Positions 6,485 through 45,567 of a stretch of 64,000 nucleotides of DNA are shown one piece after another; positions within the stretch are counted from its first letter, which is position 1, and the number at the start of each line of letters is the position of its first letter. Below the pieces are notes generated by a model. It was given only the letters and a program-made list of their open reading frames with translations. It was not told the DNA's origin and did no database searches. The stretch is taken from the NCBI GenBank assembly GCA_046541415.1, contig JBKHDI010000001.1, positions 32,657-96,656 on the forward strand. The letters are read 5' to 3'. This stretch comes from Phycisphaerae bacterium (GTDB taxonomy: Bacteria; Planctomycetota; Phycisphaerae; SM23-33). Made by a program: the position numbers and the translations under genes.

Positions 6485-9400
6485 TCAGTCGTCCTTTTCC
6501 TGCAGGTAGGGCGGGTAGCGGTAGTAGACCTGCAATGTCAGCGTGGCGGTGGCGGTGGTGTATGTCCGTCCGCCGACGCGGCCCCAGCGGCTGTCGGGAT
6601 CGAAGCTGCCCGCCTCGCCGCCCCGGTTTTCCTGCAGCTTGACCAGATAGTCCCGCATGACCTTGTTCCAGCGGTCCCACTGCGGGCCCTGGACCTGCAT
6701 CAACGCCAGCGAGCAGTAGTACCACGAGTAAAAGTTCCGCTCGCGATTGCGCCGACTGGGAACGTGCTTGAGGATGAGATCGCCGGCCTTGCGGATCTCG
6801 GAGTCCGACGGCGTTTCACCCATCAGGATGCGGCTGAAGATCGCCTCAGCTGTCATCGCCGGCGATACCTTCCTCTTGTCGGTATACCCTGCCAGCCCGT
6901 CGCGGTTGGTGACACCGTGGATGTAGGCCAGCGTCCGCTTGCGTGTTTCATCGGGGATCTGCAGACCCAGGCGCGAGACGCTGTGCAGGGCCATCACCTG
7001 CCAGCCGACGACGGACATGTCGCCCTTGTCCTTGTCTTCCCAGTAAGGCTTGTATCGCCAGCCGCCGGTCTGGGGGTTCTGGGCACGGATGATGAACTTC
7101 GCCGCCCGGATCGCCGCGTCGCGGTACTTCGGCTCGCCGGACATCGCCGCTGCTTCCGACAGCGCGATCGTCGCGATGCCGTGGGCGTACATGTTCCCGC
7201 CGCCGCGCAGATCGCCATCCTGCTTCTGGTTCTCGACGAGGTAATCGACTGCCTGCGTGACGGTCTTTCGGTACAGGCTCTCCTGGCCGGGCCTGTGGTC
7301 GGCCGCCAGGTAGCTCAGAGCCGCCAGGCCCGTCAGGGCCATGTCGGGTCTGCCGTGATGGTTGTCCTTCTTGTACGTCCAGCGGCCGTCCTTCTCCTGC
7401 TCGCGGGCCATCCAGGCCAGGGCCTTGGCGACGGCAGCTTCGGACTCCTCCGAGCCGCCCATCTTGCGGATCATCTCCTGTCGCTGCGGGAAGCTGCGCC
7501 TGCGGATAGAGAGTGGGCTGGTCAGCCGCCCAGGATCCAACGTGCCCACCATGGCCAGTTCTTCCGGCACGGGCTTGAGCATCTCGCCGATGTCCTCTGC
7601 GGGCCTTTGGGCGGGCGTTTCAGCCAGCAGCTGCTCGGCGATCGAATCGGCCGCCGGGGCGTCCAGCGACTCGATCAGCCGTGTTCTTTTGGCAGGTGCC
7701 TCATCGGCGCGGGTCTGTGAAAGGGGCCCGGGCTGGATCTTCTCGACGTCGACCGCGTCGGCCGCGGTCAGCGGGTGCTCCTCATGGGCGATCTTCTCCC
7801 GGCTGGGCTGGATCACCGGCTGGAGGCGCGGGTCCTGGGCAGCCTGGGGGAGGTTGACCTGGATCTGCTCGGCCGGGTCGACCGGGTCGACAGCCGGGGC
7901 GTAGGCGATCTCGGTCGGGCCGATGTCATCGGTCGGCTCGACAACAGGCACGGTGGCCACGTCGATCTCCGGGCGATGGGTCGCGTCGGCAGAGGGCCTG
8001 GCCCGGGCGACCTGGACTTCATCGGAGGCCTGGCGGACCTGCGGGGCAGCGTCGGCGGCGAGTTTGTCGGAAGTCTCGGCCGGGGCGGCGGGGACGACTT
8101 CCGGCCCGGCGAGCACCTCGGCCGGTTCGGGCTGGGCCTCGACGGGTACGGTCAAATCCTGTTGCGAAGGCAGGGGGGCCTCGGCGAACATGGGTGCATC
8201 GGAGGCCGGGGCCGGCTCTGCCGGCTGGGTCTCAGCCCGGACACGGACCGGCTCGACGACATTTTCCACACGGGCGATCTCGACGGATTGCTCTGGGTGG
8301 ACTTCGGGCCTGGCCTCATCGGCGGCGACCCGCTTGGCCGGTTCGGGCTCGAACCGCGGCTGGGGTTGTTGCTCCGGTGGATCGGGCAGGCGGATCTGCT
8401 CGGCCGCTACCGGCGGGATCGGTTGCGGCGCGGTCGGCTGTTGGGTCTTCTGCGTCTCAGCGGGGGGCACGGAAGGCTCGTTCAGTTCAGCCGGCGCGGG
8501 TCGGACGCGCGGGGCAGGGACGGTTTCCGCCCGGGCTACGTCGACCTGTCGCGGGTCCTGGACGGGCAACTGCGAGACCGACTCACGGATCTCCATTTTC
8601 GCCTGGGCCTCGGGGGCCAGTTCCAGCGAGACGCTCTCGATCAGGCCCGCCTTCTCGGCGACGTACTCGTAGGCCTCCTGGCTGACGAAGACCAGCCCGA
8701 GCAAAACCGTAAGCAGGATGTGCAGCAGGACGCTGGCAGCGATGGCCTTCTGCAGGGCGGACAGGTGGTCGTACCCGACGGCCTTGAGAAAGAGCATCGC
8801 CGGGACCAGCAGGGCCAGGGCCCCGGCCAGCATCCACCAGGACCAGTGGCCCGGCAGGGAGCGGCTGGTCTGCTCGGGGTAGACCTCGCGAGAGATCGCC
8901 TGGTAGAGGCTGTAGAGCCCTTCGCGGCCGGCGCGGTCGGAGCTGAAGACCAGCGTAAAGCCCTCGTCCGTCAGTTCCGGGTCGGTCTCGTTGTAGGCGC
9001 TGTTGATTTCCGGGCCCAGATTGACAGGCCCCTCCGACTTGCCCCGCAGCCGCAGGCGGTAGAGGTCGAAGCCGCCGTGGCCGCGAGGGCGGTTGGAGGC
9101 AAAGTAGAGGAAATCCCCGGCTGGCGAGACGGCGCAGGCTCCTTCATTCCACTTGGTGTTGGCGCCCAGCAGTGTCTCGGCCGGATGGTAGGCCAGACCA
9201 TCGGCGGGTTGGGGTTCTGTCGCGTCCTGCTGTTGCTGGTCGGCCTGCTCAGCGGGGGCCTTGGGCCAGGCGACGAACAGATCGTAGTCGCCCAGGTCGC
9301 CTTGGCGGACGGTGGCCTTCCAGTCGTTCTCGCGTCGCTGGGCAGCCAGGCGATTGGTCGCGAAGAACAGCCGCCCGTCGGGGGCAGGGGCGGGCGAGTA

Positions 9401-9982
9401 GTCGTTGTAGGGGCTGTTGATCGCGGGGCCCAGGTTTACCGGCTCAGCCCAGCCTTCATCGGTTCGCCTGGACGCCCAGATGTCGTACTGTCCCTGCCCG
9501 CCCGGGCGGTCGGAATAGAGCAGCAGCCACTTACCGTCGGGCGTCAGGCGGGGGCCCAACTCGTTGTACTCGGTATTGACGGCCTCCAGCGGGGCCGGCT
9601 CGGACCAGCCGGTGTCGGTCTTGTAGGCGACGAAGAGTTCGGCATTGGCGCCGGTTCGCTCGGGCCCGTAGCGGCCTGGCAGACCCCGGACGAAGTAGAG
9701 TTCCTTGCCGTCGGCTGAGAGGGCCGGCTCGTACTCCTGTGCTTCGGAGCGGACGAGGCCCTGGATAGATTCGGGCTGATCCCAGAGGACCTGTCGCGGC
9801 TGGGTTGCATCGCCGTCGCGTCGGAGCCCCGCGCCGTCGGTCCAGACGGTTCCGGCGAAGATCCACCAGGCCAGGACGGCGGCGCCTGCGACGACCGCAC
9901 CGGCCGAGGCCGATGCGGCGATCCACCAGCCCAGCTTGCCCGGTTGGCGGCCTGCGGATTGTCCCTTGCCGTCCTGAGCCAT
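6485..9982 (-). CDS. chimeric envelope protein: N-terminal TM anchor + TolB-like PD40 beta-propeller repeats + two TM helices + ~350-aa Pro/Glu/Ala-rich TonB/TolA-like spacer + C-terminal prenyltransferase/squalene-cyclase-like alpha-alpha toroid repeats
   Basis: PD40-type repeats (SPAPAPDGRLFFATNR, LTPDGKWLLLYSDR, SADGKELYFVR, LTDEGFTLVFSSDR). Hydrophobic segments at aa ~17-45 and ~380-440. Proline-rich low complexity aa ~470-800. C-terminal QxxDG(G)W-type repeats (QKQDGDLRGGG, QNPQTGGWRYKP, QEKDGRWTYK). Start ATG 1 nt after exbD stop. Confidence 0.6.
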   Translation of the reverse strand: MAQDGKGQSAGRQPGKLGWWIAASASAGAVVAGAAVLAWWIFAGTVWTDGAGLRRDGDATQPRQVLWDQPESIQGLVRSEAQEYEPALSADGKELYFVRGLPGRYGPERTGANAELFVAYKTDTGWSEPAPLEAVNTEYNELGPRLTPDGKWLLLYSDRPGGQGQYDIWASRRTDEGWAEPVNLGPAINSPYNDYSPAPAPDGRLFFATNRLAAQRRENDWKATVRQGDLGDYDLFVAWPKAPAEQADQQQQDATEPQPADGLAYHPAETLLGANTKWNEGACAVSPAGDFLYFASNRPRGHGGFDLYRLRLRGKSEGPVNLGPEINSAYNETDPELTDEGFTLVFSSDRAGREGLYSLYQAISREVYPEQTSRSLPGHWSWWMLAGALALLVPAMLFLKAVGYDHLSALQKAIAASVLLHILLTVLLGLVFVSQEAYEYVAEKAGLIESVSLELAPEAQAKMEIRESVSQLPVQDPRQVDVARAETVPAPRVRPAPAELNEPSVPPAETQKTQQPTAPQPIPPVAAEQIRLPDPPEQQPQPRFEPEPAKRVAADEARPEVHPEQSVEIARVENVVEPVRVRAETQPAEPAPASDAPMFAEAPLPSQQDLTVPVEAQPEPAEVLAGPEVVPAAPAETSDKLAADAAPQVRQASDEVQVARARPSADATHRPEIDVATVPVVEPTDDIGPTEIAYAPAVDPVDPAEQIQVNLPQAAQDPRLQPVIQPSREKIAHEEHPLTAADAVDVEKIQPGPLSQTRADEAPAKRTRLIESLDAPAADSIAEQLLAETPAQRPAEDIGEMLKPVPEELAMVGTLDPGRLTSPLSIRRRSFPQRQEMIRKMGGSEESEAAVAKALAWMAREQEKDGRWTYKKDNHHGRPDMALTGLAALSYLAADHRPGQESLYRKTVTQAVDYLVENQKQDGDLRGGGNMYAHGIATIALSEAAAMSGEPKYRDAAIRAAKFIIRAQNPQTGGWRYKPYWEDKDKGDMSVVGWQVMALHSVSRLGLQIPDETRKRTLAYIHGVTNRDGLAGYTDKRKVSPAMTAEAIFSRILMGETPSDSEIRKAGDLILKHVPSRRNRERNFYSWYYCSLALMQVQGPQWDRWNKVMRDYLVKLQENRGGEAGSFDPDSRWGRVGGRTYTTATATLTLQVYYRYPPYLQEKDD

Positions 9983-9983
9983 G

Positions 9984-10406
9984 CTACTCCTTCGTTTCCT
10001 GGGGGATGTAGCCGATGTTGACGCGTTCTATGCCTGTCTTCTGACAAAGCACTGCGGTCTGGTTGAAGAACTTGTGATACGCGTTGGCATCGCAGCGGAG
10101 CAGCACCTTGCGGTCGGGGTTGTCCTGGACCTCGCGAGTCAGCAGTTCCTCCAGTTGCTTGTCGTCATAGAGCTTGCCGGCGATCTCCTTCTTGCCCTCT
10201 GCGGTGATATTGACAATCAACTGGTTCGGCGTGCTGGAAAGCGACTCATTGGCGCTGGCGCGGGTCAGCGTGATGTTCTGGTTGCGTTCCTCTTCGGCAA
10301 AGGTGGTGGCGACCAGGAAGAAGATCAGCAGCAGGAAGACCATGTCGATCAGCGGCATGAGGTTGGGCGGGTCTTCGGAATGGTCGGCTTTGTCACGGAT
10401 GCGCAT
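9984..10406 (-). CDS. biopolymer transport protein ExbD/TolR
   Basis: 140 aa. N-terminal TM (LMPLIDMVFLLLIFFLV) and ExbD/TolR fold sequence. AGGAGA RBS. Confidence 0.85.
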   Translation of the reverse strand: MRIRDKADHSEDPPNLMPLIDMVFLLLIFFLVATTFAEEERNQNITLTRASANESLSSTPNQLIVNITAEGKKEIAGKLYDDKQLEELLTREVQDNPDRKVLLRCDANAYHKFFNQTAVLCQKTGIERVNIGYIPQETKE

Positions 10407-10421
10407 GGTTGCGTCTCCTGT

Positions 10422-11243
10422 TTACGCCGTGGCCGGGGCGGTAGTGGGGGTCTGGTCGGGCTGGGCAGACGCAGGGGCCGGCTCTTCGATGACCAGCGCC
10501 CCTTCGATCAGCTCGACGGATTGCTCGTTCATCTCGTGGACCAGCCGTTCGATCCGCCCGAGGAAGAAGTAATAGAAGATCAGCACGGGAATCGCCACGA
10601 CCAGGCCGCCGAACGTGGTCACCAAGGCCTCGTAAATGCCCTTGGCCAGGCTGGTTGCGCGGCCCAGGCCCTGCTGGCTGGCGACCTGGAAGGCTTGGAT
10701 CATCCCCCAGACGGTCCCGACAAGCCCCAGCATCGGGGCGACTGCTGCGATCGCGTAGAGCATCCGCAGGTTCTTGCGCAGCTTGCTGACCTCGTGGGCT
10801 CCGGCGTCTTCGATGGCTTCCTCGATGGCCTTTTCGCCGCGGTGCATCTTGCGCAGTCCGGCCAGGGCCAGGCGGGCCAACGGGCTGTCATTGGCTCGGC
10901 AGTACTCCATTGCCTCCTTCCGGCCGGCCCCGCCACGATAGACCGACTGCAGTTGGGCCAGGAAGCCCGGCGGGATCACCCGCTTGCGCTGCAGGGCCAT
11001 GAACCGCTCGACGACGACCGCCGCGGCCAGCAGGCTGCAGGCGGCGATGGGGATCATGAACCAGCCGCCCTTGAGCAGGATCTCCAGGATCGACATTTCC
11101 TCGACCTGGGCCTGGTCGTCGTTGTTCTTGGTCTCCGGCGCTGCCTCGGCAGGCTGGGCCACCGCGGCGGACGCGACGGTAAAGAGGATGGCTGCGAGCA
11201 GGAATGTCGCTGAGCGGCGGATGATTCGGCTGCGGGTATTCAC
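10422..11243 (-). CDS. MotA/TolQ/ExbB proton-channel family protein
   Basis: Three TM segments and conserved MotA/ExbB C-terminal region (LGLVGTVWGMIQAF...GGLVVAIPVLIFYYFF). GTG start with AGGAGA RBS. Confidence 0.85.
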   Translation of the reverse strand: MNTRSRIIRRSATFLLAAILFTVASAAVAQPAEAAPETKNNDDQAQVEEMSILEILLKGGWFMIPIAACSLLAAAVVVERFMALQRKRVIPPGFLAQLQSVYRGGAGRKEAMEYCRANDSPLARLALAGLRKMHRGEKAIEEAIEDAGAHEVSKLRKNLRMLYAIAAVAPMLGLVGTVWGMIQAFQVASQQGLGRATSLAKGIYEALVTTFGGLVVAIPVLIFYYFFLGRIERLVHEMNEQSVELIEGALVIEEPAPASAQPDQTPTTAPATA

Positions 11244-11267
11244 GTCTGTCTCCTGTCAGGACTATGT

Positions 11268-14200
11268 TTACTGTTTCAGTTCGGCCAGTCGTTTTCGGGC
11301 GGCTGCGGCGATGGTCTGGTCCTTGTAGTCCTCGACCACGCGGGTGTACTGGCCGATGGCCTCGGACTTGCGCCCCAGCTTCTCCAGAACCCGACCTGCC
11401 TCGTAGAGGGCGTTGGCAGTCCACTTGTCGTAGCCGTAGACGTCGCCGACGACGTAGAAGGCGTCCAGGGCTTCTTTGAGCTTGCCCTCCTCGAAGAAGC
11501 ACTCGCCGAGCTGGAACTGGGCTTTGGCGGCGGTTTCGCCCTGGTGGTCGGAGTCGGCGATCTTCGCGTACCAGTTGCGGGCGTCGGAGTATTTCCGCTG
11601 GTTTTGCAAAGCCCAGCCCGTGCCGTACAGCGCGATGTGCTTGAACTCGTGCTTGTCGAACTTCTTGAGATACTCCTGCCAGGCCTTCAGTGCGTCGCCG
11701 TAGTGGTTCTGCATTTCGCGCACCTCGCCGAGCTTCAGCAGGGCGAACGGTTCCAGATCATCCGCCTTGCCGCTTTGCAGCAGCGTTTCGAGCATGCTCT
11801 CGGCGGTCTGGAAATCCCGGACTTCCTGGGCGGCCAGGCTGCCCTGGTACAGTGCCGACGGGGTCTGCTCGCTGTCGGCATGCGCCTTGGCGTAGGCAGC
11901 AAAGGCGTCGCGCGCCTTGGCCGGCTGATCCAGTTTCTGATAGCACCATCCCTGCCGGTACAGGGCGACTTTTCGCACGGCCGGCGGGGCGGACTCATCG
12001 GCCAGCACCTTTGTCAGCAGTCCCAGAGCTTCGTCGAACTTTTCGCGGGCATAGAGCAGTTCGGCCAGTTCGGCCCGGGCCGGGGTGGCCAGGGGCCCTT
12101 CGGGGAACTTCTCCAGCAGCTTGCGGTAGGATTCGACGGACTGTTCCCTCTGGCCGGAGTCTTTCTGGGCCCAGGCCAGTTCGTACATCGTCTGCTGTGT
12201 GGCGCGTTTGTCGTTGCTGGCCAGTTCGGCCAGGACATCGGCGGCCTTGTCGTGCTGCCCCATTTCCGCCAGGCACGTGCCCACGAGGCGAGCCGCCTGG
12301 TCGTTGTCTTTGGCCAGTTCGCGGAAGATCGGCAGGGCCTTGTCGGGCTCACCGGCCAGGCGCAGGGCCTCTGCCTGGCGGAATCGTGCCTCGCCGCGGT
12401 TGGCGCTGTCGGGGTAGTCCTCGGCAAAGCGGCCAAACCGTTCGGCGGCCGTCTTGTATTCCTTGGCATCGTAGGCGATCCACCCCCGGAGCAACTGGGC
12501 CGAGGCGGTCACCGGCTTGGGCGCCTTGGCCTGGATGATCCGTTCGAGCAGTTTCTCGGCCGGTTCGGGCTGATCCTTCTGGTAGTGGATCTCAGCCAGC
12601 TCGAACCAGGCGTAGGGGACGATGGCCGACTCCTGGGCTTTGACCTTCTCGAAAGGTTCGAGGACTTTGGCAGCCTCGTCCTGTTTGTCCGCGCGGCGCA
12701 GGGCGCGGGCGAGGTAGTAGCGGCCTTCGAGCCGTCCTGCCTTGGCTTCGCTGCGAACGAAGCGGTGGAGGATGTCGGCGGCTTGGGCGGGCTGGTCGGT
12801 CTTCAGCAGGGCCTGGCCGAGGTAGAGCATGGCCTGCCTGCCGATGCGGTCGTCGCCGGCGGATTTTTGCTCGGCGACGGGTTTGAGCACGTCGATGGCC
12901 TTCTTGCTGTCTCCGACCAGAAATGCGCTCTGCCCGCGACGCAGGGCGAAGCGGCGGGCATTGTCGCCTTCGGCCGAGGCTGCCAGCCGGCTGAATGTCT
13001 TGGCGGCCTGGTCGTACTGTCCGAGCGTGAAGTGACACTCGGCGGCCAATTCAGCGGCCGGACCGGCCATGGGGTGGTCATCCTGTCGGGCGATTTTCTC
13101 GGCCAGTTCGATCGCCTCCTTCGTCTTGCCCGCCTGCTGGAGGCACCAGGCGCGGCGGTAGGCGGCGTCGGGGGCGTAGGGACTCTGGGCGTGACGTTCG
13201 GTGACGGTTTTGAAGTCCTCGGCAGCCTGGGCGTGCTGGCCCAGCTTCATCCGGCAGGTGGCCAGATCGTATCGGGCGGCGGCTTCTTCGGGCAGGTTGC
13301 CCTTGCTGTCCAACACCTCGTCCAGCAGCTTGGCGGCTGCATCGTGGTCATCCTTGGCCATGCGGGCCCGGGCCAGCCAGTATCGTCCGCGGCGGCTGCG
13401 GTCCTTGTCCGATTTGATGACCTGCTGGAAGGTGCGGGCGGCATCGTCCGCCTTGCCGGCCTTGAGTTGCGAGATCCCCATCTGGAATCGACCGGCCGGG
13501 GCGTACGGGCCTTCGTGGGTCTTGAGCAGCTGCTCGAAGGCCTCGACGGCGTCGCTATGCTTGCCGGCCCGCTGCAGCGCGACAGCCAGGCTGTAGCGTC
13601 CGTCGGCCTTGCGGCCCTCGTCGGCGCGGTCGATCAGTTTTCGGTAGGCGGCCAGGGCTTTGTCGGTCTGGCCGGCTGCTTCGTAAGACTGGCCCGCCAG
13701 CAAGAGGGCGTTGAGCAGGTAGGGGCTGTTCTCGACGGCGGCGACGGCCTGGAAGCTCTCGGCTGCGGCAGCGGGATTGCCGCTTTTTCGCTGCGACAGA
13801 CCTTTGTAGTACAGCACGCCCGTGCGGTAGCCGCTGTCCTTGTGCTTCTTGAGAAAGTCATCCGCCTTCTTGGTCGCCTCGTCGGTCTTGTCCATCTGGT
13901 AGAGCAGGCGTACGATGTTCAGACCGGCCAGTTCAGCCAGGGGATTGTCGGGATGCTTTCCGGCCAGTTCCCCGAACGCCTCCAGGGCCCCGTTCATGTC
14001 GTTGCGGGCCATGCGAGACTGGCCCAGCAGGGCGCGGGCCTCGGGGGCCTGCTGGAAGTCCTTGGATCGGATCGCCTCGATCAGCTGGCGCTCGGCCTCG
14101 GGGTACTTCTTGAGCTGGTAGAGGCTGATGCCCAGGCCATATCGCGCCGCCGCACGATCCCGGTGATCCTTGAAGCGGGAGAGGAACTCTTCGTACTGCG

Positions 14201-14354
14201 TGGCGGCTGTTTCGTAGCGCTTGGCCCTGAGGCTGCCGTTGGCGGCCAGGAGCTTCTTCGCCGCGGCGGTCTGGTCCTGTCCCTGCACCGACCAGGCCGG
14301 GAGCAGCAGGGCTGCTGCGAAAAGAAGAACCGCCCATTGTGCCTGTTTCCGCAT
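11268..14354 (-). CDS. secreted tetratricopeptide-repeat protein (~1028 aa, signal peptide)
   Basis: Signal peptide MRKQAQWAVLLFAAALLLPAWSVQG. Dozens of 34-residue TPR-like units (A..Y..G..Y...G...A pattern) throughout. First gene of the ExbBD operon. Confidence 0.75.
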   Translation of the reverse strand: MRKQAQWAVLLFAAALLLPAWSVQGQDQTAAAKKLLAANGSLRAKRYETAATQYEEFLSRFKDHRDRAAARYGLGISLYQLKKYPEAERQLIEAIRSKDFQQAPEARALLGQSRMARNDMNGALEAFGELAGKHPDNPLAELAGLNIVRLLYQMDKTDEATKKADDFLKKHKDSGYRTGVLYYKGLSQRKSGNPAAAAESFQAVAAVENSPYLLNALLLAGQSYEAAGQTDKALAAYRKLIDRADEGRKADGRYSLAVALQRAGKHSDAVEAFEQLLKTHEGPYAPAGRFQMGISQLKAGKADDAARTFQQVIKSDKDRSRRGRYWLARARMAKDDHDAAAKLLDEVLDSKGNLPEEAAARYDLATCRMKLGQHAQAAEDFKTVTERHAQSPYAPDAAYRRAWCLQQAGKTKEAIELAEKIARQDDHPMAGPAAELAAECHFTLGQYDQAAKTFSRLAASAEGDNARRFALRRGQSAFLVGDSKKAIDVLKPVAEQKSAGDDRIGRQAMLYLGQALLKTDQPAQAADILHRFVRSEAKAGRLEGRYYLARALRRADKQDEAAKVLEPFEKVKAQESAIVPYAWFELAEIHYQKDQPEPAEKLLERIIQAKAPKPVTASAQLLRGWIAYDAKEYKTAAERFGRFAEDYPDSANRGEARFRQAEALRLAGEPDKALPIFRELAKDNDQAARLVGTCLAEMGQHDKAADVLAELASNDKRATQQTMYELAWAQKDSGQREQSVESYRKLLEKFPEGPLATPARAELAELLYAREKFDEALGLLTKVLADESAPPAVRKVALYRQGWCYQKLDQPAKARDAFAAYAKAHADSEQTPSALYQGSLAAQEVRDFQTAESMLETLLQSGKADDLEPFALLKLGEVREMQNHYGDALKAWQEYLKKFDKHEFKHIALYGTGWALQNQRKYSDARNWYAKIADSDHQGETAAKAQFQLGECFFEEGKLKEALDAFYVVGDVYGYDKWTANALYEAGRVLEKLGRKSEAIGQYTRVVEDYKDQTIAAAARKRLAELKQ

Positions 14355-14405
14355 CGTTTTATCTCCAGGCAATCAGAAGAACAACATGAAGGCGCCGGCC
14401 CGTCG

Positions 14406-17060: not shown

Positions 17061-17393
17061 ATGGCATCCGACAAAGTACTGGAACTGACCGACGAGAATT
17101 TCGAGCAGGAAGTGGCCAACTACGACGGCGTGGCCCTGGTGGACTTCTGGGCCGAGTGGTGCATGCCCTGCAAGATGCTCGCGCCGACCATCGACGAAAT
17201 CGCCGGTGAGTACGAAGGCAAGGCCAAGGTCGGCAAGGTCGACACCGACAACAGTCGCGAAACCGCGATGAAGTTCGGCATCTCGGCGATTCCGACGGTC
17301 ATCCTCTTCAAGAACGGGCAAGTGGCCAAGAAGTTCGTCGGCCTGCAGCAGAAGGGCGAACTGACCAGCGCCATCGACGAAGCCCTGGCCTGA
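17061..17393 (+). CDS. trxA: thioredoxin with atypical WCMPCK active site
   Basis: Thioredoxin fold sequence (DFWAEWCMPCKMLAPTIDE, AIPTVILFKNGQ). Active-site dipeptide Met-Pro instead of Gly-Pro, confirmed at codon level. Confidence 0.85.
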   Translation: MASDKVLELTDENFEQEVANYDGVALVDFWAEWCMPCKMLAPTIDEIAGEYEGKAKVGKVDTDNSRETAMKFGISAIPTVILFKNGQVAKKFVGLQQKGELTSAIDEALA

Positions 17394-17413
17394 TCATTCC
17401 AGCCGATCCGAAC

Positions 17414-18100
17414 ATGTTGACACTGGACAGAGAGCAGATCCGCCGGATCGACCAGTACGCCATCGAGACGCTGGGCATACCCGGACTGATCCTGATGGAA
17501 AACGCCGGGCGCAACGCGACCGACGCGATCTGCCAACACCTCGGGCAGGTCGAGGGCAGGCGTGTGGCCATCGTCGCCGGCAAGGGCAACAACGGCGGGG
17601 ACGGTTTCGTCGTCGCCCGCCACCTGGCGATCCGCGGCGCAAAGCCCGAGGTCTTCCTGACGACCGAGGCAGAGGCCCTCTCCGGCGACGCGGAAGTCAA
17701 TTACAACGCAGCCCGCGCCGTAAAGATCCCGATCCACATCACCAACGAAGACAACACGATCCGCGGGCTTGCAGAGCAACTCAACGCCTTCGACCTGGTC
17801 GTCGACGCGGTGGGGGGAACGGGAATCACCGGGGCACTGCGGGGATCGATGGCCTCGGTGGTCGAGCAGATCAACCAGGCGGGGGTGGCCGTGGCGGCCA
17901 TTGACATCCCCACCGGGCTGGACGCCGATACCGGACAGGCTGAGGGACCGGCCGTGCGGGCCCAGTTGACCGTTACCTTTGCCGCCCGCAAGAGCGGCTT
18001 CGACGCCGACGGTGCCCAGGCCTACACGGGCCGCATCGTCCTGGCGGATATCGGCATCGACGCCGGGCAGATCCACCGACTGGCCGACAGCGGGGCCTGA
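17414..18100 (+). CDS. NAD(P)H-hydrate epimerase (YjeF N-terminal domain only)
   Basis: YjeF_N motifs (VAIVAGKGNNGGDGFVVARHL). 228 aa, no C-terminal dehydratase domain. Confidence 0.75.
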   Translation: MLTLDREQIRRIDQYAIETLGIPGLILMENAGRNATDAICQHLGQVEGRRVAIVAGKGNNGGDGFVVARHLAIRGAKPEVFLTTEAEALSGDAEVNYNAARAVKIPIHITNEDNTIRGLAEQLNAFDLVVDAVGGTGITGALRGSMASVVEQINQAGVAVAAIDIPTGLDADTGQAEGPAVRAQLTVTFAARKSGFDADGAQAYTGRIVLADIGIDAGQIHRLADSGA

Positions 18101-19517: not shown

Positions 19518-20543
19518 ATGCGTAAGTTGACCATCCTGACTTTGTTGATCCTTGCCTCGGCCACGCAGGGACGGCCTTTTATCCCCCCGGTGGGTTCCAT
19601 GCATGTGCCGATGGCCCTGGCAGAGGCCGAGTTGGTTTTCGTTGTCGATGGCGACGACGTCAAGAGCACCGAGACCGTTAAGCGGAATGTGCCCGTGCCC
19701 GGCAGTGTGGAGAACGGCGAACACAACTGCCAGACCTTCACCACCGACAAGATCGAGATCCTCGGCGGCAAGAGGGCCGAGGCGATGAAGGGCAAGACGC
19801 TGCAGTTCATCAGTCCCGCCATCTCGCAGGCCAACCGGCGAAACCGGCGACTCTACTTCCGCCCGGTCAGTTTCCGCCCCGGCCAGAAGTATCTGGTGGT
19901 GCTCCAGAAAATCGAGAACGTGGACGAGCTCTTTCTGCCTGTCGACGGCGTGCACTTCAGGCCCGCGAACGACCGGACCATCGCCGAAGCCAAGCTCATG
20001 GTCAACCCGGAACGCTGGTCCTGGGGCCGCAGCGACGACTCGGGGCTGCAGTTGGGCCTGATCATCCGTCAGCCCGAGGTGCGGATCTACAAAGTTGCCG
20101 GGCAGGACAGGCAATTCGCCAGTCTCAACGTCATGGTCATGCTCCGCAACACCGGAGACAAACCCGTCCGCCTGAGCCTGCATCCGGACCAGAAGCCGAT
20201 CAAGCTGCTGGCCATGGATGATGAGGGCACCGTAGTCGAGGCATCGCCCTATGCGGGCAAGAAACAGATCTCCCTGGCTTACGGTTCGGTCCTGCCGAAG
20301 TACATCCAGCACGAACTGGCTCCCGGCGAGTTCACCTGCCTGGGCCCCATGGGCCTCTCGCCGTACGGCATGGCCGTGCAGATCCCCGTCAAGGCGGGCA
20401 AGTGGAAGCTCTTCGCCATCTTCGACGGCAAGGATACCGACGGCGGCAGGCTGTGGACCGGCGAGATCCGCTCGCAGGGCGTGGATATCCAGGCCAGCGA
20501 GGGAGTCAGGCCCATCAGGCCCATCCTGCGCCAAGCCGAGTAG
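19518..20543 (+). CDS. hypothetical secreted protein (signal peptide MRKLTILTLLILASATQG)
   Basis: Coherent ORF with signal peptide. No recognisable domain. Confidence 0.55.
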   Translation: MRKLTILTLLILASATQGRPFIPPVGSMHVPMALAEAELVFVVDGDDVKSTETVKRNVPVPGSVENGEHNCQTFTTDKIEILGGKRAEAMKGKTLQFISPAISQANRRNRRLYFRPVSFRPGQKYLVVLQKIENVDELFLPVDGVHFRPANDRTIAEAKLMVNPERWSWGRSDDSGLQLGLIIRQPEVRIYKVAGQDRQFASLNVMVMLRNTGDKPVRLSLHPDQKPIKLLAMDDEGTVVEASPYAGKKQISLAYGSVLPKYIQHELAPGEFTCLGPMGLSPYGMAVQIPVKAGKWKLFAIFDGKDTDGGRLWTGEIRSQGVDIQASEGVRPIRPILRQAE

Positions 20544-20634
20544 TTTCCTCGCAGACCGCGGCTGCTGGTTCCGAACTGTTCCATGTCGGCCTGCAGAGTT
20601 CCGCGCCAACCCCGGACCGTCTGAGAGTAGTCGG

Positions 20635-22146
20635 ATGAGTTTGTCGAAAATCCTGTTATCTGCCTTTGCCGCTGCCCTCGTCGTCGGCTGTGTCGGTCAG
20701 CCATATCCGGCGCCGCCGAGAACGGTCCGCCAACTCCAGGCCGACCAGCGCCGCCGGGCCGGCGGGTACCCAGCCCACACGGTCCTGCTGCACAACGCCC
20801 AGCGCGTGCTCGATCCAGCCCTGCCGACGGCAGGCCGCGTCGAGTCCGTCGAAGTGCTCAAGGCGATGACGGTCAACCAGCGCGAGATTCTCGCGCAGTT
20901 GGCCTCGCTGCTGGAAGACGAAAAGACGCCCGATCCTCTGCGGAAGGCCGTGCTGGACCTGCTGATCAGCCAGGATTACCCGGGCCTGGCCGGCCACATC
21001 GTCAATATCCTCCCGAAGCTCGATCCGTCCGGGCCCATGCGCAAGAACCTGCTGGACTGGCTGGCCCGTCATGGCGAACCCAGCGTACTGGCAGAAGTCG
21101 TCCAGGCCTGGGCCCGCCAGGAAGGGCCCGACTCCCCGGCCGAGCAGGGCTACAGGAACCTGGTGGCCCGACTCTCGAAGATCAGCTGGGACGAGGCCCT
21201 GCTCGGTGCGATCAACGACGAGGGCTTCCTGGCCAAGGGCTCGGCCCTGGAGATCCTCGCCGACCGCATCCACCCCAGTCAACTGGCTGGGCGCATCCGA
21301 CGCCTGCCCTCCAGGACCCAGGCGGTGGCCGCAATGCAGGCATTTGACAAGATGTTCGACTACCTGCCCCACACGGCTGAGCAGCTCCTGGCGGTCGCCC
21401 AGTTGCACCTGTCTCACAGGGCCGCGATGGACGACGCCCGGAAACTCTACCTGAAGTGGAAGCAGCGGGACGGCTACCAGTTCGCCATCGAGGACTTTCA
21501 CCTGCTGGCCCACCTGGCGACCGATCCGCTGCGCCCCGACGCGCCGCGCGACCAAGTGCTGCTCAGCCTCGGCCAGGCCACCCGCGGGCGGAAACACGTT
21601 TCCCACCTGCCGGACAGCCGTGGCAAGGAGGTCGAAAACAACTTCTGGCAGGACGCCGAAGGTCTCAGCACGGCCGAGGTCTGGACGCTCTACCTGCTCA
21701 ACGAGCTGCTGAGCAACCCGGTCAACCAGGCCCAACTGTACCTGACGGCACGCGACGACTGGCGCGACAAGCAGCAGGTCTACGGCGGGCTGATCCGCTA
21801 CGTCCACGGCCGGGCCGCCACACGCGACGTGCGACGAGGCTCGGCAGGGGGAGCCATCGCCTACCGCTACCCCAACCAGCCCGACGCGCGGAACAACGCC
21901 ATCTACGTTCCCGACAGCCAGGCCCAACGCGACGCGCGCGACAGCCTCTGCTGGTACTTTCCCAACTTCCAGGAGATGAACAACGCCCACCGTGCAGGGC
22001 CCGATAAGTCGCTGCTGGAGACAGCCCGCCAGCACGGCAGGCGCGGATTGGTGGTCACGTCCCTGAACGGCCAGCGCTTCTCAGCGCATTACTTCACGCT
22101 GGACGGGAAGGTCATCTCGCTGGGCGTCTTGCCGTTCCGACGCTAA
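20635..22146 (+). CDS. hypothetical lipoprotein (lipobox LVVGC), helical-repeat-like
   Basis: ATG 20635, lipoprotein signal MSLSKILLSAFAAALVVGC, 503 aa. Track ORF starts earlier (20251) in unlikely Arg/Ser-rich extension. Confidence 0.55.
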   Translation: MSLSKILLSAFAAALVVGCVGQPYPAPPRTVRQLQADQRRRAGGYPAHTVLLHNAQRVLDPALPTAGRVESVEVLKAMTVNQREILAQLASLLEDEKTPDPLRKAVLDLLISQDYPGLAGHIVNILPKLDPSGPMRKNLLDWLARHGEPSVLAEVVQAWARQEGPDSPAEQGYRNLVARLSKISWDEALLGAINDEGFLAKGSALEILADRIHPSQLAGRIRRLPSRTQAVAAMQAFDKMFDYLPHTAEQLLAVAQLHLSHRAAMDDARKLYLKWKQRDGYQFAIEDFHLLAHLATDPLRPDAPRDQVLLSLGQATRGRKHVSHLPDSRGKEVENNFWQDAEGLSTAEVWTLYLLNELLSNPVNQAQLYLTARDDWRDKQQVYGGLIRYVHGRAATRDVRRGSAGGAIAYRYPNQPDARNNAIYVPDSQAQRDARDSLCWYFPNFQEMNNAHRAGPDKSLLETARQHGRRGLVVTSLNGQRFSAHYFTLDGKVISLGVLPFRR

Positions 22147-27776: not shown

Positions 27777-28136
27777 ATGTCCGGAGAAAAAGAACAGTTC
27801 ATCAGCCAGCCCATCCGTCCGGTGGGCGAGAAACTCGGAACGGCCATGATGGCCATCGGCGAGCCGGCCCTGCCGGAGGCCTTCGTCTTCCGAGGCCGGG
27901 AGTACCGCATCGAGACCATCCAGGCCAGCTGGAAGACCTCCGCCCGGGAAGGGCACAGCCGCACGGGGGAACTGTACCTGCGGCGACACTGGTACCGCGT
28001 GGCGTGCGAAGACGGCTCGATCGCGACGATCTACTGCGACCGCCAGGCCCGCAACCGCAACAAGCCAGGCCAGCGATGGTTCGTCTACTCGGCCTGCTGG
28101 GCCTCGACAGCCCCGGGAACCGAATCGATCGACTGA
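27777..28136 (+). CDS. hypothetical protein (119 aa)
   Basis: ORF from ATG 27777. Convergently overlaps 3' end of next gene by ~50 nt, so extent uncertain. Confidence 0.35.
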   Translation: MSGEKEQFISQPIRPVGEKLGTAMMAIGEPALPEAFVFRGREYRIETIQASWKTSAREGHSRTGELYLRRHWYRVACEDGSIATIYCDRQARNRNKPGQRWFVYSACWASTAPGTESID

Positions 28137-28729
28137 CGCAGGTCGGGCCAGGTCAGGTCGTCGCCGGTCTGCATCTTCCCGTCAGGCCCGGCGCTGGTCA
28201 GCAGGGCGGCGAGGTAGGTTCGGCCATCCTGGCTGATCCGCACGATCTCGTAGCCGATGGCGCTGCCCCACGGATCCTGCAGATCGGTCGGGCTGAGCAC
28301 AGGTGACCAGTTGGCGGAACTGCCCGGCGCGGGAATCCGGGTCAGCACGGCCAGGCCTTCCGGGCCGCTGGGGTACCGCCCGACGATGCTGTGGTAGCGG
28401 ATCAGTTCTTTGTGGATCTTGGCCATCGTCGCCATCGCCAGCTTGGTCTTCAGCCCATTCTCGGCGGCAGAATCCCCGTCACCGGGGCGGAGCGGCAGAG
28501 ACAGCGGCGAATCCGTCTGCCGCTGCTCTTCGACCACATCGAAGCGATCGGCCAACTCGCGATGGGATTCGCTCTTTCTCTCGATCGGGCTGGGGGCCGC
28601 TTCATCAGGGTCCCGATCCGAGGATTCGCGCGGTTCGTAGGGAACCGGTTCAGCGGGCGGTTGGTCCTTGCAGCCGCTTTGCGACAGGAGGGCGACAGAT
28701 AGGGTGCAGACGGCCAGGAGTCTCATCAT
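28085..28729 (-). CDS. lipoprotein with type II secretion pseudopilin G (GspG) C-terminal-like domain
   Basis: Lipoprotein signal MMRLLAVCTLSVALLSQSGC. C-terminal GspG-like motif (YPSGPEGLAVL...DPWGSAIGYEI...DG..Y.L...G.DG). No prepilin GFT(L/I)xE leader. Start ATG overlaps DJ-1 stop (ATGA). Confidence 0.55.
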   Translation of the reverse strand: MMRLLAVCTLSVALLSQSGCKDQPPAEPVPYEPRESSDRDPDEAAPSPIERKSESHRELADRFDVVEEQRQTDSPLSLPLRPGDGDSAAENGLKTKLAMATMAKIHKELIRYHSIVGRYPSGPEGLAVLTRIPAPGSSANWSPVLSPTDLQDPWGSAIGYEIVRISQDGRTYLAALLTSAGPDGKMQTGDDLTWPDLRQSIDSVPGAVEAQQAE

Positions 28730-29244
28730 CGCAGCGCCTCGATGACCGCCTTGGTAAACGCAGGCAGGTCGTCCGGCTTGCGGGCGGTTATCACGTTGCC
28801 GTCGACCACACATTCCTCATCGACCCAGTCGGCCCCGGCGTTGAGCATGTCGTGCTTGATCGCCAGGAAGCTCGTCGCCCGCCTGCCCTGCAGGGCGTCG
28901 GTGCAGCAGAGCATCCACCCGCCGTGGCAGATCGCTGCCAGCAGGATCTGCCCCTCGGCCGCCTGCTGAATGAAGCGAATCATCGAACGGCTGCGACGCA
29001 TGAAGTCCGGACACCAGCCGCCCGGGACGATCACGCAGTGATAGTCCGCCCCGTTGACGTCCGCGGCCGAGTGCGTCGAGACGCACGGATAGCCGAGTTT
29101 CGAGGGGTACTGGGTCTCGGCCTCAGGGGCCACCAGATGCACCTCGGCCTGTTCTTCGATCAGGCGATAGTACGGGTGCCAGACCTCCATCTCCTGGTAC
29201 TGCTGGTCGAGCATGATCGCGATCCGTTTGTCCTGCAGGGTCAT
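28726..29244 (-). CDS. DJ-1/PfpI family protein (class I glutamine amidotransferase-like)
   Basis: 172 aa. Nucleophile-elbow Cys in AAICHGG, typical DJ-1/PfpI sequence. GGAG RBS. Confidence 0.8.
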   Translation of the reverse strand: MTLQDKRIAIMLDQQYQEMEVWHPYYRLIEEQAEVHLVAPEAETQYPSKLGYPCVSTHSAADVNGADYHCVIVPGGWCPDFMRRSRSMIRFIQQAAEGQILLAAICHGGWMLCCTDALQGRRATSFLAIKHDMLNAGADWVDEECVVDGNVITARKPDDLPAFTKAVIEALR

Positions 29245-29305: not shown

Positions 29306-29611
29306 TCAGCCGTCGAGCACGTCGATGTCGCTGCCGTCCAGGGCGGCCGCAGAGGCGTCTCCGGTCGGTTGACTGCCGCTGAGGTCGGCCCGTCCGCCCG
29401 AGCCGGTGGCAGCTGGGTATAGGCCGGTCTGCAGCGACGCCCGGGCCGGGCCGCAGACCGGATTGGGGCTGAAGGCCCGCAGAAACTGCACGCCCCGGGC
29501 GGCGAGGCGGTCCAGATTCGGCGTGGTTTCCAGAGGCTGGCCGTAACAGCCGATCGAGTCGGGCCTCTGCTGATCGGTGAAAAAGACGACGAGGTTCGGT
29601 TGTTTCGACAT
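29306..29611 (-). pseudogene. N-terminal remnant (~70 aa) of a sulfatase (arylsulfatase family), truncated
   Basis: VVFFTDQQRPDSIGCYG...NLDRLAARGVQF..PVCGPARASLQTGLYP matches sulfatase N-terminal signature including C-x-P-x-R formylglycine motif. Sequence then degenerates and stops at 101 aa. Only ~360 bp available before next gene. Confidence 0.6.
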
Positions 29612-33513: not shown

Positions 33514-34386
33514 TTAGTACATGCTTCGCAGATAACCCCGTGCGGTGGCAAACCAGCCCGTGCCCCAATGTCGCAGGCCGTGCAGCAGCAGCGAGGCTAG
33601 ACCAACCGCAGTCAGATCGGCGGCGTTGGCCTCGATAAAGCTGATCACGCTGGACGGGTGATTGCGCACGTGGAGCAGCTCGCAGTGTTCCATGTTGTCA
33701 TCGGCCTTGCGGGCGCCTTCACGCAGTTCGGCCACGCCGGCATCGACGCAGACGTCGAAGATCATCTCCGGCTGGACGATGTGCTTGTCGCGAACCAGGC
33801 CCAGGCAGATCATCTCGGTAATCTTCTCGCCGGGCATGGCGCACTCTTCCAGCAGTTCCTCGGCCATGGTCCGGAAGGGGCAGGGCAGTTGGTCAGGCTC
33901 CTCGGGAGGCTGGACGACGCCCCCGATCGGGTGGATCCGTCCGGCGTGGTAGTACACGTGCTCGCTGCGCCGCCCGAGCAGCAGGAAGCCGTCGTTGGTC
34001 TGCAGGGCCGCCGAGACGCCCAGGGCGTCGCCGAGGATGTCCGGGCCATACTCGTACCGCAGATGGGCGTGTGTCAGGTTGGTGCCCAGGAACGTCTTGA
34101 AGTCGATCGGGCCCAGATCTAGCGTCAGGTCGTCGCCGGTGGTCGAGCAGTCTTCCAATCGACACAGTTGGCCGTTGAACAGGCGACGGTCGGTCCCCTG
34201 GGCCTTTTCCATCTGCTCGGCCCAGGTCTTGTCGATCAACTCCGTCACAGCCTCGCTGACCGGACGGCTGAGAGTCGACCACTTGACCCGGACGCGCTCG
34301 GGGGGGTACTTCCCGACCATGTCCAGGAAGAAACGCCCGCAGTCGCGGACGCCTCCGTTGGTTTTGTGCACTTCGTATGCCTGCAA
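33514..34386 (-). CDS. hypothetical protein (290 aa; degenerate NUDIX-like box GGVVQPPEE..RTMAEELLEE)
   Basis: Coherent ORF between hemB and secreted protein. TTG start with GAGG RBS. Fold assignment tentative. Confidence 0.4.
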   Translation of the reverse strand: MQAYEVHKTNGGVRDCGRFFLDMVGKYPPERVRVKWSTLSRPVSEAVTELIDKTWAEQMEKAQGTDRRLFNGQLCRLEDCSTTGDDLTLDLGPIDFKTFLGTNLTHAHLRYEYGPDILGDALGVSAALQTNDGFLLLGRRSEHVYYHAGRIHPIGGVVQPPEEPDQLPCPFRTMAEELLEECAMPGEKITEMICLGLVRDKHIVQPEMIFDVCVDAGVAELREGARKADDNMEHCELLHVRNHPSSVISFIEANAADLTAVGLASLLLHGLRHWGTGWFATARGYLRSMY

Positions 34387-40365: not shown

Positions 40366-40587
40366 ACAGAAATCGGCCAAATTTTCCAGGCCCGATCCCC
40401 GGAATCCGACCTGTATGCGTAGAAAGTGGCGACCCGGGTCCGGGAGGATCCCCCCCCGGGAGCAACCGGGCCGGAGAAGGGCGATTTCTTTCTGAGCAAA
40501 CACTTTACGTCCCGTCGCCCAGGCGTCTATCATGCGGACGAATCGACGCCTTTTCTCCAGGTCCGGAGGATGGAGATGACAGATCCT

Positions 40588-41550
40588 ATGAAAACGGGTG
40601 TATTGGTGCTGGTTTCGGTAGTCCTGCTCTTGGCGAGCGGCTGTGGAGACAGGACGCAGACGATGCGGTTCTCCTACCACAGACCCGCCCTGGTGACGCT
40701 GCCGGACGGGGTCGAGACGATGCTCATCGCACCGCTGGCCGCATCGGATGCCCAGGACAAGCCCTGGACAAACCGCGCCGCCGATACGATCAGCAACGTC
40801 CTGGCCGATTCCAGCCTGGCCAGGCAGGGTCTGGACATCCGTCTGGCCGAGCCGGGCCAAGTCGTCGAATCGGCTGGCCCAGCGGCCGAACTGGCCCGAC
40901 AGACCGGGGCAGAGTCCTGCCTGTTCGGGAGCATCGATACCTCCCATTCGCAACGAAAGGTGGTCGATCCCTACATCGATCCGCAGACCGGGCAGGTCAG
41001 CCGTCGGGATATCTGGGCAATGTCGGCCAAAGTGACAATGCAACTGCGGCTGATCCATGCAGCGGATTCGGCCACCATCACCGCAGTCGAAATCACCCGC
41101 ACCTTCGACTCGCAGGACCCCAAAGACAGCTCGCTGGTCGCCAGGGTAACCGACAGTCTGCGGGCTACCGACGAAGCACCTTCGGCTGAGCCCGTTCTGG
41201 CCGACCTGATCGAGCAGTGCGCCCGGGCCTTTGTCGCCCGGATCAGCCCGTCGCGGGTGACCGTCGAGGCCGACCTGCTGGACGGGCTGCCCGAGGCCCT
41301 GGTCGCCACGGCCAACCAGATGGCAGTTCGGAAAGACTATCAGACCGCCGCGGACCTGTATATGCAAGCCATGGACGAGGCCGGGGACCAGGCAGGCGTA
41401 ATGTACAATCTGGGCCTGGTTTACGAAGCGATGGGGCGGCTGAACGAGGCCGCCGCCATGTACGGATCGGCCAGCATGGCCTCGGCCAGACCGATTTTCA
41501 GCGAGGCGCTGCAACGAGTGGAGCGGGCGCCTCTGATAGATGGCAGCTAA
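40588..41550 (+). CDS. lipoprotein (lipobox LLASGC) with C-terminal TPR-like helical repeats
   Basis: Signal MKTGVLVLVSVVLLLASGC. C-terminal TPR-like (YQTAADLYMQAMDEAGD..GVMYNLGLVYEAMGRLNEAAAMY). Track ORF from 40426 is a 5' over-extension. Confidence 0.6.
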   Translation: MKTGVLVLVSVVLLLASGCGDRTQTMRFSYHRPALVTLPDGVETMLIAPLAASDAQDKPWTNRAADTISNVLADSSLARQGLDIRLAEPGQVVESAGPAAELARQTGAESCLFGSIDTSHSQRKVVDPYIDPQTGQVSRRDIWAMSAKVTMQLRLIHAADSATITAVEITRTFDSQDPKDSSLVARVTDSLRATDEAPSAEPVLADLIEQCARAFVARISPSRVTVEADLLDGLPEALVATANQMAVRKDYQTAADLYMQAMDEAGDQAGVMYNLGLVYEAMGRLNEAAAMYGSASMASARPIFSEALQRVERAPLIDGS

Positions 41551-41629
41551 CCACCTGGGCCGATGAATGTCCTGTAGACCTGGATGGTCGACTGACCGGC
41601 CCTGTACGGTACCAATGGAGAGACAAACG

Positions 41630-42997: not shown

Positions 42998-43025
42998 CCC
43001 GCGCGATTCATGAGAAAGGCGATCC

Positions 43026-45338: not shown

Positions 45339-45567
45339 GTAGAAGGGGTCCTCTGCTGATTGCGCCTGTCAAGTCTGCGAGAATGGCGACGATCGCTGAG
45401 CCTAGCTGAATGGAGGGCCGTGTGCAAGGCTCCTGCCGCATCAGGCGAAATCGGGAAAGACTGAACGCATCCGGTCCGCCGGCCGATATGGAAGGGGAAT
45501 CTGCTCGGGCAGCACGGACAGGGAGGGGGTGGCGCCCCTGAGAGAACCTCAAACAAGGATACTGGAA

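Follow-up and report, generated by a model that had tools for sequence, protein, structure and literature searches.

In a 64,000-nucleotide stretch of the genome of a Phycisphaerae bacterium (contig JBKHDI010000001.1 of assembly GCA_046541415.1, positions 32,657 to 96,656; this whole stretch is the window referred to below) we find a cassette of four genes which, in our reading, encodes a single envelope machine of the Ton/Tol class. The machine would be driven by the proton-motive force and would have as its transducer a 1165-residue protein, here called X, that ends in an α-helical toroid; a Tol-like role is favoured, and we assign this reading a probability of roughly 0.68. In diderm bacteria two established systems, Ton and Tol, supply the outer envelope with energy drawn from the inner membrane. 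The four genes, in the order in which they would be transcribed and with lengths in amino acids (aa), are:

11268-14372, minus strand: open reading frame (ORF) of the tetratricopeptide-repeat (TPR) gene, first gene of the cassette, with an ATG at 14354 and a product of 1028 aa
10422-11243, minus strand: ExbB/TolQ gene, GTG start, 273 aa
9984-10406, minus strand: ExbD/TolR gene, 140 aa
6485-9982 including the stop codon, minus strand: X, the candidate force transducer, 1165 aa

An earlier note, made from the letters of this DNA, had described these as four tightly linked minus-strand genes in the order TPR, ExbB, ExbD and X. The linkage is borne out by the ORF positions, which leave 24, 15 and 1 nucleotides (nt) between successive genes. 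Two Logan contigs from the same organism also carry products of 1165, 1028 and 273 aa in their public gene calls, which were made independently, and the public record of the exact X protein is that of a hypothetical protein from a Phycisphaerae metagenome-assembled genome (MAG). The downstream edge of the cassette is formed by a convergent gltX-like gene and the upstream edge by a gap of 151 nt followed by a Mem_trans permease gene; housekeeping genes, e.g. gltX, valS and leuA, surround it. Scans for promoters and terminators gave signals at background level, and none of the four cassette proteins was matched by the PADLOC defence-system models, which served as a test for anti-phage 5:2 motors such as Zorya.

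Judged by sequence similarity, the cassette ExbB belongs to the ExbB/TolQ/MotA family of proton channels and the cassette ExbD to the ExbD/TolR family. ExbB matches the Pfam family MotA_ExbB (PF01618) with E = 6.7e-33 and 113.6 bits (cut-off 22.9) and has a signal-peptide-like extension at its N-terminus. With the NCBIfam models it reaches 80 bits for TolQ (equivalog cut-off 221) and 60 bits for ExbB (cut-off 206), and because it stays below both equivalog cut-offs it is placed in neither named subfamily. Its best sequence matches in the PDB are TolQ chains: GLVGTVWGM and EALVTTFGGLVVAIP of the cassette protein align with GLFGTVWGI and EALIATAIGLFAAIP of TolQ, and in this alignment GTVWG and TT..AIP stand opposite GTVWG and AT..AIP, the region of the conserved Thr residues of TM2 and TM3 and of the Pro of TM3 being kept. 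ExbD likewise matches its family in Pfam (PF02472, 1e-21, 77.7 bits, cut-off 25.4) and scores higher with the TolR model of NCBIfam (41.7 bits) than with the ExbD models (at most 33.4), under the TolR and ExbD equivalog cut-offs in each case. The Asp of its single transmembrane (TM) helix, located in PLIDMVFLLLIFF, aligns with the Asp of Serratia ExbD, PFIDVMLVLLIIF.

The layout of the N-terminal part of X was derived from hydropathy and from an AlphaFold2 model of residues 1-470 (predicted local distance difference test score, pLDDT, 81). Together with the C-terminal part, the protein is divided as follows:

9854..9934, minus strand: TM1, residues about 17-43 by hydropathy (helix 16-42 in the model), following a basic N-terminus with a predicted location in the cytoplasm
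8882..9847, minus strand: PD40 β-propeller of roughly six blades, residues about 46-367 (PD40 2.4e-25; pLDDT mostly >85)
8777..8845, minus strand: TM2, residues about 380-402, first helix of a conserved TM hairpin
8681..8758, minus strand: TM3, residues 409-434; its SHLS-type motif is LQKAIAAS417VLLH421ILLTVLL428
8573..8650, minus strand: post-TM segment, residues 445-470, a strand (IESVSLEL) and then a helix with the invariant R466
7493..8572, minus strand: linker, residues 471-830, of low complexity and rich in Ala, Pro, Glu and Val
6515..7492, minus strand: (α/α)6 toroid head, residues 831-1156, the all-α C-terminus

The membrane anchors and the Pro/Glu-rich spacer that the earlier note had seen in X are both recovered here, the former as three TM helices with the propeller between TM1 and TM2 (in the model the second helix of the hairpin extends over residues 409-444), the latter as residues 445-830, in which Ala and Pro make up 16% each and Glu 11%. 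TM2 and TM3 are joined by a basic loop, for which a cytoplasmic location is predicted, and by the positive-inside rule the propeller and all residues past TM3 would lie in the periplasm. The linker is little conserved, its consensus consisting mostly of variable positions with scattered Pro, and its length varies among homologues of 1100-1800 aa. In Pfam, X matches PD40 four times (2.4e-25), SQHop_cyclase_C (3e-7) and Prenyltrans (7e-5), with weak C-terminal matches to pectate lyase and LanC. Neither TonB_C (PF03544) nor domain III of TolA (PF06519) was found in X at E <= 0.1 in Pfam and NCBIfam, and neither TonB_C nor TolA in seven diverse X homologues at E <= 0.01; the prenyltransferase/squalene-cyclase-like toroid thus stands where a TonB C-terminal domain would be expected, as had been proposed.

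The view of X as a transducer gains further support from TM3 and the strand behind it. TonB and TolA dock with their TM helices on ExbB/TolQ motors through the SHLS motif (PMC12905483), and the Ser-x3-His-x6-Leu part of this motif is present in X as S417, H421 and L428. S417 and H421 are invariant in a 17-sequence alignment of the X family, and when family members are aligned by MAFFT with TonB and TolA of E. coli, whose N-terminal sequences were verified against PDB chains, this Ser and this His form the sole invariant columns. The S-x3-H signature lies inside a hydrophobic 21-mer in 175 of 231 homologues; 33 of those lacking it were inspected, and most of them either are N-terminal fragments or carry A-x3-H, as a subclade does. 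The His occurs in every full-length homologue examined, the motif Ser being Ser or Ala and the residue at His+7 mostly Leu or Phe. That the Ala-for-Ser subclade (QKCFVVALLLH, in homologues P0030, P0036, P0038, P0046, P0059, P0061 and others) retains the His is consistent with the His as the critical residue. All full-length family members taken from 80 genome loci have a helix of the form [KR]C..xS...H..L; among them are proteins of 520-800 aa which have the linker and the toroid but no propeller, and which in Pirellulales, Kuenenia and Verrucomicrobiales come directly after ExbD. The strand after the motif His is spaced in X (IESVSLEL, at +27) much as in TonB (ISVTMV, at +25 from H20) and TolA (IDAVMV, at +28 from H22). 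The TonB strand segment has been crystallised as a 23-residue peptide (PDB 8p9r_C), which we take to be the ExbD-binding region, and by analogy residues 445-470 of X are a candidate ExbD-binding 'motor box'.

At its far end X bears the toroid, with one QxxxGxW, a GGWRY, a GD(M/T)SVxGWQ and a conserved LTL(E/Q)VYYRY end. Measured against the Pfam gathering thresholds, Prenyltrans (22.9 vs 26.5) and SQHop_cyclase_N fall below and SQHop_cyclase_C just above. Class II terpene cyclases and prenyltransferase β subunits have an (α/α)6 toroid as well, but the toroid of X is only 15-16% identical to theirs, is devoid of DxDD and, unlike these enzymes, is predicted to be periplasmic and to end a TonB-like tether. 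X could, on the strength of its fold, be taken for a membrane-tethered periplasmic enzyme with a glycan or a polyprenyl or hopanoid-type compound as its substrate, ExbB and ExbD serving its localisation or regulation instead of supplying force. Every close structural neighbour of the toroid is indeed an enzyme, and the invariant toroid residues (D988 and S990, forming Asp-x-Ser, with W975, Y977, W994, Y1085 and W1102) could be read as parts of an active site. This view is weakened, however, by the lack of DxDD, DDxxD and CxxC anywhere in X; moreover, identity of the toroid to any enzyme amounts to 8-18%, the invariant GGW...D.S...W..AL is a generic structural repeat of the toroid fold, and the invariant TM His, the variable linker of ~400 residues and the strict synteny with ExbB and ExbD would be left unexplained. 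We regard a tethered enzyme as decidedly unlikely.

The propeller of X had been called TolB-like, and in a Foldseek search of the PDB with the N-terminal model the top 16 matches are all TolB (best E = 1.5e-11). At the level of sequence, the TolB model of NCBIfam (TIGR02800) gives 20 bits against a cut-off of 343, the TolB_N domain was not found in X, and the best matches are partial ones of the propeller region to PorE (1e-38) and CHU_0125 (8e-36). The propeller thus appears TolB-like at the level of the modelled fold only. PorE and CHU_0125 are outer-membrane lipoproteins composed of TPRs, a propeller and OmpA, and they share with the cassette the PD40 propeller region and the combination of TPR and propeller modules. 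X, by contrast, scores 133 against the 600-bit cut-off, has no OmpA_C and no lipoprotein signal, and is a predicted inner-membrane protein whose TPRs reside on a separate polypeptide. PorE has been proposed to be a compact Tol-Pal-like tether (PMC12204202).

The weak NCBIfam similarities of the propeller region to PorE and of the TPR protein to PorW/SprE and GltC could point to a motor for motility or secretion, comparable to Agl-Glt gliding or to a PorE-associated type IX accessory, which would move a surface adhesin or power a secretion step. TolQR-like motors do power gliding in Myxococcus (cited in PMC12204202). Yet all these NCBIfam matches lie far below the family cut-offs and comprise generic PD40 and TPR repeats only, and core genes of the Glt, Gld or Por systems were found neither in the window nor in related loci. 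We also know of no type IX secretion system in Planctomycetota, and consider such a function very improbable.

The TPR protein is secreted: it possesses a signal peptide and lacks a lipobox Cys. Its repeats are those of YbgF/CpoB, with TPR_6 at 6e-75 in Pfam and the YbgF-type model TIGR02795 at 261.7 bits (cut-off 90.1) in 11 stretches, in agreement with the earlier description of this 1028-aa protein as a CpoB/YbgF-like partner. The full-length CpoB model NF008068, on the other hand, gives 89.6 against a cut-off of 383. In terms of sequence, then, the repeat type is that of YbgF/CpoB while the architecture differs, CpoB/YbgF being proteins of ~260 aa with an N-terminal coiled coil and one C-terminal TPR domain.

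To find relatives, one genome of each GTDB species was scanned by pattern and by tblastn, with at least 573 confirmed cases as the outcome; the loci compared here are the best 80 of these, and synteny counts are based on tblastn and on loci with enough flanking sequence. Among loci of the propeller type, which belong to Phycisphaerae and unclassified Planctomycetota MAGs, each of the 40 counted has ExbD and ExbB immediately upstream of X and on its strand, and in 34 of 34 a TPR homologue precedes ExbB in turn; on these counts the adjacency is not due to chance. The gap between ExbD and X is mostly -4 to 80 nt. We also considered whether X might be an artefact of assembly or of a frameshift, with a merely coincidental neighbourhood. 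More than 120 homologue clusters of 1100-1800 aa, from independent assemblies, keep the N-terminal PD40 and the C-terminal toroid in one polypeptide, and the fusion is therefore genuine; with the synteny at species level and the identical public gene calls, an artefact or coincidence has next to no plausibility left. X, in sum, holds no TonB_C or TolA domain and is no frameshift fusion, and its arrangement is conserved in relatives, the three points on which the earlier note had made its proposal depend.

Outside the propeller type, two layouts recur. One repeats the order TPR-ExbB-ExbD-X (e.g. Pirellulaceae L049, Verrucomicrobiales L036 and Tautonia L055); the other reads ExbB-ExbD-ExbD(-ExbD), a gene for ~330 aa, X and a TPR gene of roughly 1000 aa (L054, L079 and L080). 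[quoted passage not shown] One contig of a Planctomycetota MAG (L041:5417-22991) encodes TPR-ExbB-ExbD-X and, ~3.5 kb downstream, a second ExbB-ExbD-X. The toroid domain alone is represented by 3602 sequences (50%-identity cluster representatives) at E <= 1e-30 and by 9198 at E <= 1e-10, and the source names of the homologues are all 'hypothetical', 'WD40-like' or 'prenyltransferase'. Two tandem toroid stretches occur in homologues P0029 and P0121-P0126, in proteins of up to ~2300 aa.

Directly upstream of the cassette and on the same strand, 16 Phycisphaerae-type loci encode a BlaI-type repressor (Penicillinase_R, ~135 aa) and 19 a BlaR1-type M56 peptidase (850-1180 aa, with HExxH and a long coiled-coil C-terminus). 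These genes are situated 0.1-0.4 kb upstream of the TPR gene in L009, L015, L020, L022, L023, L026, L027, L033, L034, L035, L041, L044, L048 and others. Its position suggests signal-dependent regulation of the cassette. The BlaR1-like neighbour has no similarity to X, and the BlaI/BlaR1 pair is not present in the 64-kb window, where the Mem_trans permease gene takes its place.

From the gene order, domain architecture, motifs and conservation described so far, we infer a set of physical contacts, a topology and a physiological role. ExbB and ExbD would form a proton-conducting inner-membrane motor, as suggested by their family membership and the retained Asp, Thr and Pro, presumably with the ExbB5-ExbD2 stoichiometry of the family. 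TM3 of X would dock at the periphery of the ExbB pentamer in the manner of the TonB and TolA helices, and the periplasmic domain of ExbD may be contacted by the conserved strand that follows directly beyond the membrane. The Ala/Pro/Glu-rich linker of ~390 residues would span the periplasm, and the toroid, in place of the TonB/TolA C-terminal domain, would grip a distal partner, which may be an outer-membrane or wall-associated protein, a glycan or a lipid. The propeller would be held beside the motor at the face of the inner membrane, where its probable binding partner is the wall, ExbD or the TPR protein. The secreted CpoB-type TPR protein, the constant fourth component, may act as a periplasmic scaffold or partner.

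As for the role of the machine, we favour a housekeeping, Tol-Pal-like one, in which outer membrane and wall are coupled to the energised inner membrane, over a TonB-like import of nutrients. This leaning is based on the co-occurrence of similarities to TolQ, TolR, TolB and CpoB, on the housekeeping neighbours and lack of a linked transporter gene, and on the reported lack of Pal in planctomycetes (supplement of PMC12204202). The competing idea is a Ton-like energiser of import, the toroid of which would act on outer-membrane transporters or pores and power the uptake of large substrates, e.g. polysaccharides, with the TPR protein as adaptor. The motor, the SHLS-type helix and the Pro-rich linker are as compatible with TonB as with TolA, (α/α)6 toroids often bind glycans, and the window encodes a sulfatase, GH10 and GH1 glycoside hydrolases (GH) and an OprB porin. 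In addition, some homologues (P0113, P0116 and P0120) carry an Ig-like CarboxypepD_reg domain after the toroid, and a fold of this type has been implicated in the contact of TonB with TonB-dependent transporters in Bacteroides (PMC12204202). No Plug/barrel receptor or substrate-specific gene, however, is linked to the cassette in the window or recurs in related loci, and both the housekeeping surroundings and the similarities seen for the TPRs, the propeller and the TolQ- and TolR-like subunits speak more for Tol. An importer is, in our estimate, rather unlikely.

Several observations speak against the Ton/Tol-class machine as we propose it. In TM1 of TolQ a Trp contacts the motif, and the cassette ExbB has Ala in its place; the fourth SHLS position, a Ser at His+11, is not conserved in the X family. 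Neither phmmer with residues 404-486 of X (83 residues, covering TM3 and the strand behind it) nor hmmsearch with a 23-sequence profile matched TonB or TolA in the PDB; as a control, E. coli TonB and TolA compared over the same region score -1.5 bits, and since these two miss each other too, the negative search does not discriminate. On present sequence comparisons the TM helix of X resembles that of TonB and TolA at the motif level only. The modelled topology adds a difficulty, because a propeller with both ends anchored in the inner membrane would be unable to act like the soluble TolB at the outer membrane. Furthermore, no distal partner is encoded in the cassette, the toroid has a fold usually seen in enzymes (terpene cyclases, hydrolases of GH76 and GH8, and epimerases), and some toroid proteins have no detectable ExbBD neighbour.

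Set beside known systems, the cassette lacks at least one defining feature of each of TonB, TolA, TolB, CpoB, the vWA transducers and the terpene cyclases. With the Tol-Pal system of Gracilicutes (TolQ-TolR-TolA-TolB-Pal-CpoB) it shares a TolQ/TolR-type motor and a transducer whose SHLS-type TM helix is followed by a strand and a long linker, as well as a TolB-matching PD40 propeller and YbgF/CpoB-type TPRs, all in one operon. Unlike Tol-Pal, it is devoid of TolA domain III, the N-terminal domain of TolB, Pal and YbgC; its propeller is fused into the transducer and would be pinned at the inner membrane between two TM helices, its TPR protein, encoded by the first gene of the operon, is roughly fourfold larger than CpoB, and its head is an (α/α)6 toroid. 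The Ton system (ExbB-ExbD-TonB) has in common with the cassette the tightly packed order of motor, motor and transducer, the S-x3-H helix, the Pro-rich linker, the Asp of ExbD and the Thr of ExbB, whereas X is without TonB_C and without a linked TonB-dependent receptor and adds two TM helices and a propeller on the N-terminal side of the docking helix.

The closest published analogue of X is provided by the vWA-headed transducers of the Planctomycetota-Verrucomicrobiota-Chlamydiota (PVC) superphylum, Bacteroidetes and Proteobacteria, in which a disordered linker connects an SHLS helix with a vWA head (Williams-Jones et al. 2025, PMC12204202). In the PVC group their genes lie downstream of one for a TPR protein and of tolQ/tolR-like genes (PMC12204202), so that the SHLS-type TM helix, the disordered linker, a globular head other than that of TonB and the upstream TPR-tolQ-tolR genes are all shared with X. 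The head of X, however, is an (α/α)6 toroid, and a vWA domain was not found in the protein; where vWA operons have a heterologous tolR-like pair, the cassette has one ExbD gene, and X has an added TM1-propeller-TM2 module. The vWA-headed proteins demonstrate that adaptors of the TonB/TolA kind can carry heads other than that of TonB (PMC12204202). In that paper's text and in the supplements searched, a toroid, prenyltransferase or squalene-cyclase head and Phycisphaerae are unmentioned; the toroid gene is likewise passed over in papers on Kuenenia and Brocadia in which ExbBD and TonB are named, a possible connection to the mucin utilisation locus of Akkermansia found no support, and no description of a toroid-headed transducer was found in the literature searched. 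The suggestion of the earlier note that this could be an uncharacterised energised system accordingly stands for the toroid head, but not for the principle, since non-TonB heads behind TPR, tolQ and tolR genes were already known from the vWA proteins. The cassette combines a known logic and motor with a new and apparently undescribed toroid head, to which the Phycisphaerae add an apparently equally new built-in propeller module.

Among the 44 further predicted proteins of the 64-kb window no TonB_C, TolA, Pal/OmpA_C or TonB-dependent receptor was detected with Pfam; the claim that a canonical TonB or TolA is missing holds for the locus and the window, and its scope ends there. Other features of the window are the following (GC3, GC content at third codon positions):

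17120-18076, minus strand: 318 aa, coding-like GC3, no Pfam match
20251-22146, plus strand: 631 aa, coding-like GC3, no Pfam match
28085-28813, minus strand: pseudopilin of the type II secretion system G type (T2SS-G)
29306-29611: ORF of 101 aa
29927-32382, minus strand: two adjoining radical-SAM/SPASM genes (347 and 471 aa)
33514-34386, minus strand: 290 aa, coding-like GC3, no Pfam match
40426-44162, plus strand: a TPR protein of 374 aa, a protein of 476 aa with two LPP20 lipoprotein domains and a protein of 378 aa without Pfam match
45529-46878, plus strand: OprB-family carbohydrate porin
58524-59195, minus strand: PEP-CTERM-tagged protein, 223 aa
61320-63998, plus strand: at least 893 aa, running past the window end, coding-like GC3, no Pfam match

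The radical-SAM/SPASM pair suggests a locus for peptide maturation resembling those of ribosomally synthesised and post-translationally modified peptides, and the three co-directional genes at 40426-44162 may constitute another small envelope-associated cluster. The porin, the pseudopilin and the PEP-CTERM-tagged protein are also related to the envelope.

Returning to the Ton/Tol-class machine, its Tol-like role can be stated in a stronger form, which we put forward tentatively and as possible at best: the cassette would be the functional counterpart of Tol-Pal in Planctomycetota and the PVC superphylum, its toroid holding the outer membrane attached and pulling it inward at division. What the toroid would then grip is a component of the outer membrane or wall, be it a protein, a glycan or a lipid or hopanoid, and in Phycisphaerae the TolB-derived propeller would have been built into the transducer. 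To our knowledge, most planctomycetes lack FtsZ.

The vWA head was proposed in 2025 as a third type of transducer head beside those of Ton and Tol (PMC12204202), and the toroid would represent a fourth, distributed across the PVC superphylum with ~3600 cluster representatives of the toroid domain at E <= 1e-30. This suggests that the SHLS helix and its linker serve as an adaptor of general use, to which heads of various kinds have become attached. H421 in X, the TM Asp of ExbD (D21) and the toroid cavity offer themselves as targets for point mutations. For the TolB-type propeller, its incorporation into X would mean a new evolutionary fate, and for the Pal-less planctomycetes the cassette is a candidate explanation of how the outer membrane is coupled to the cell body.

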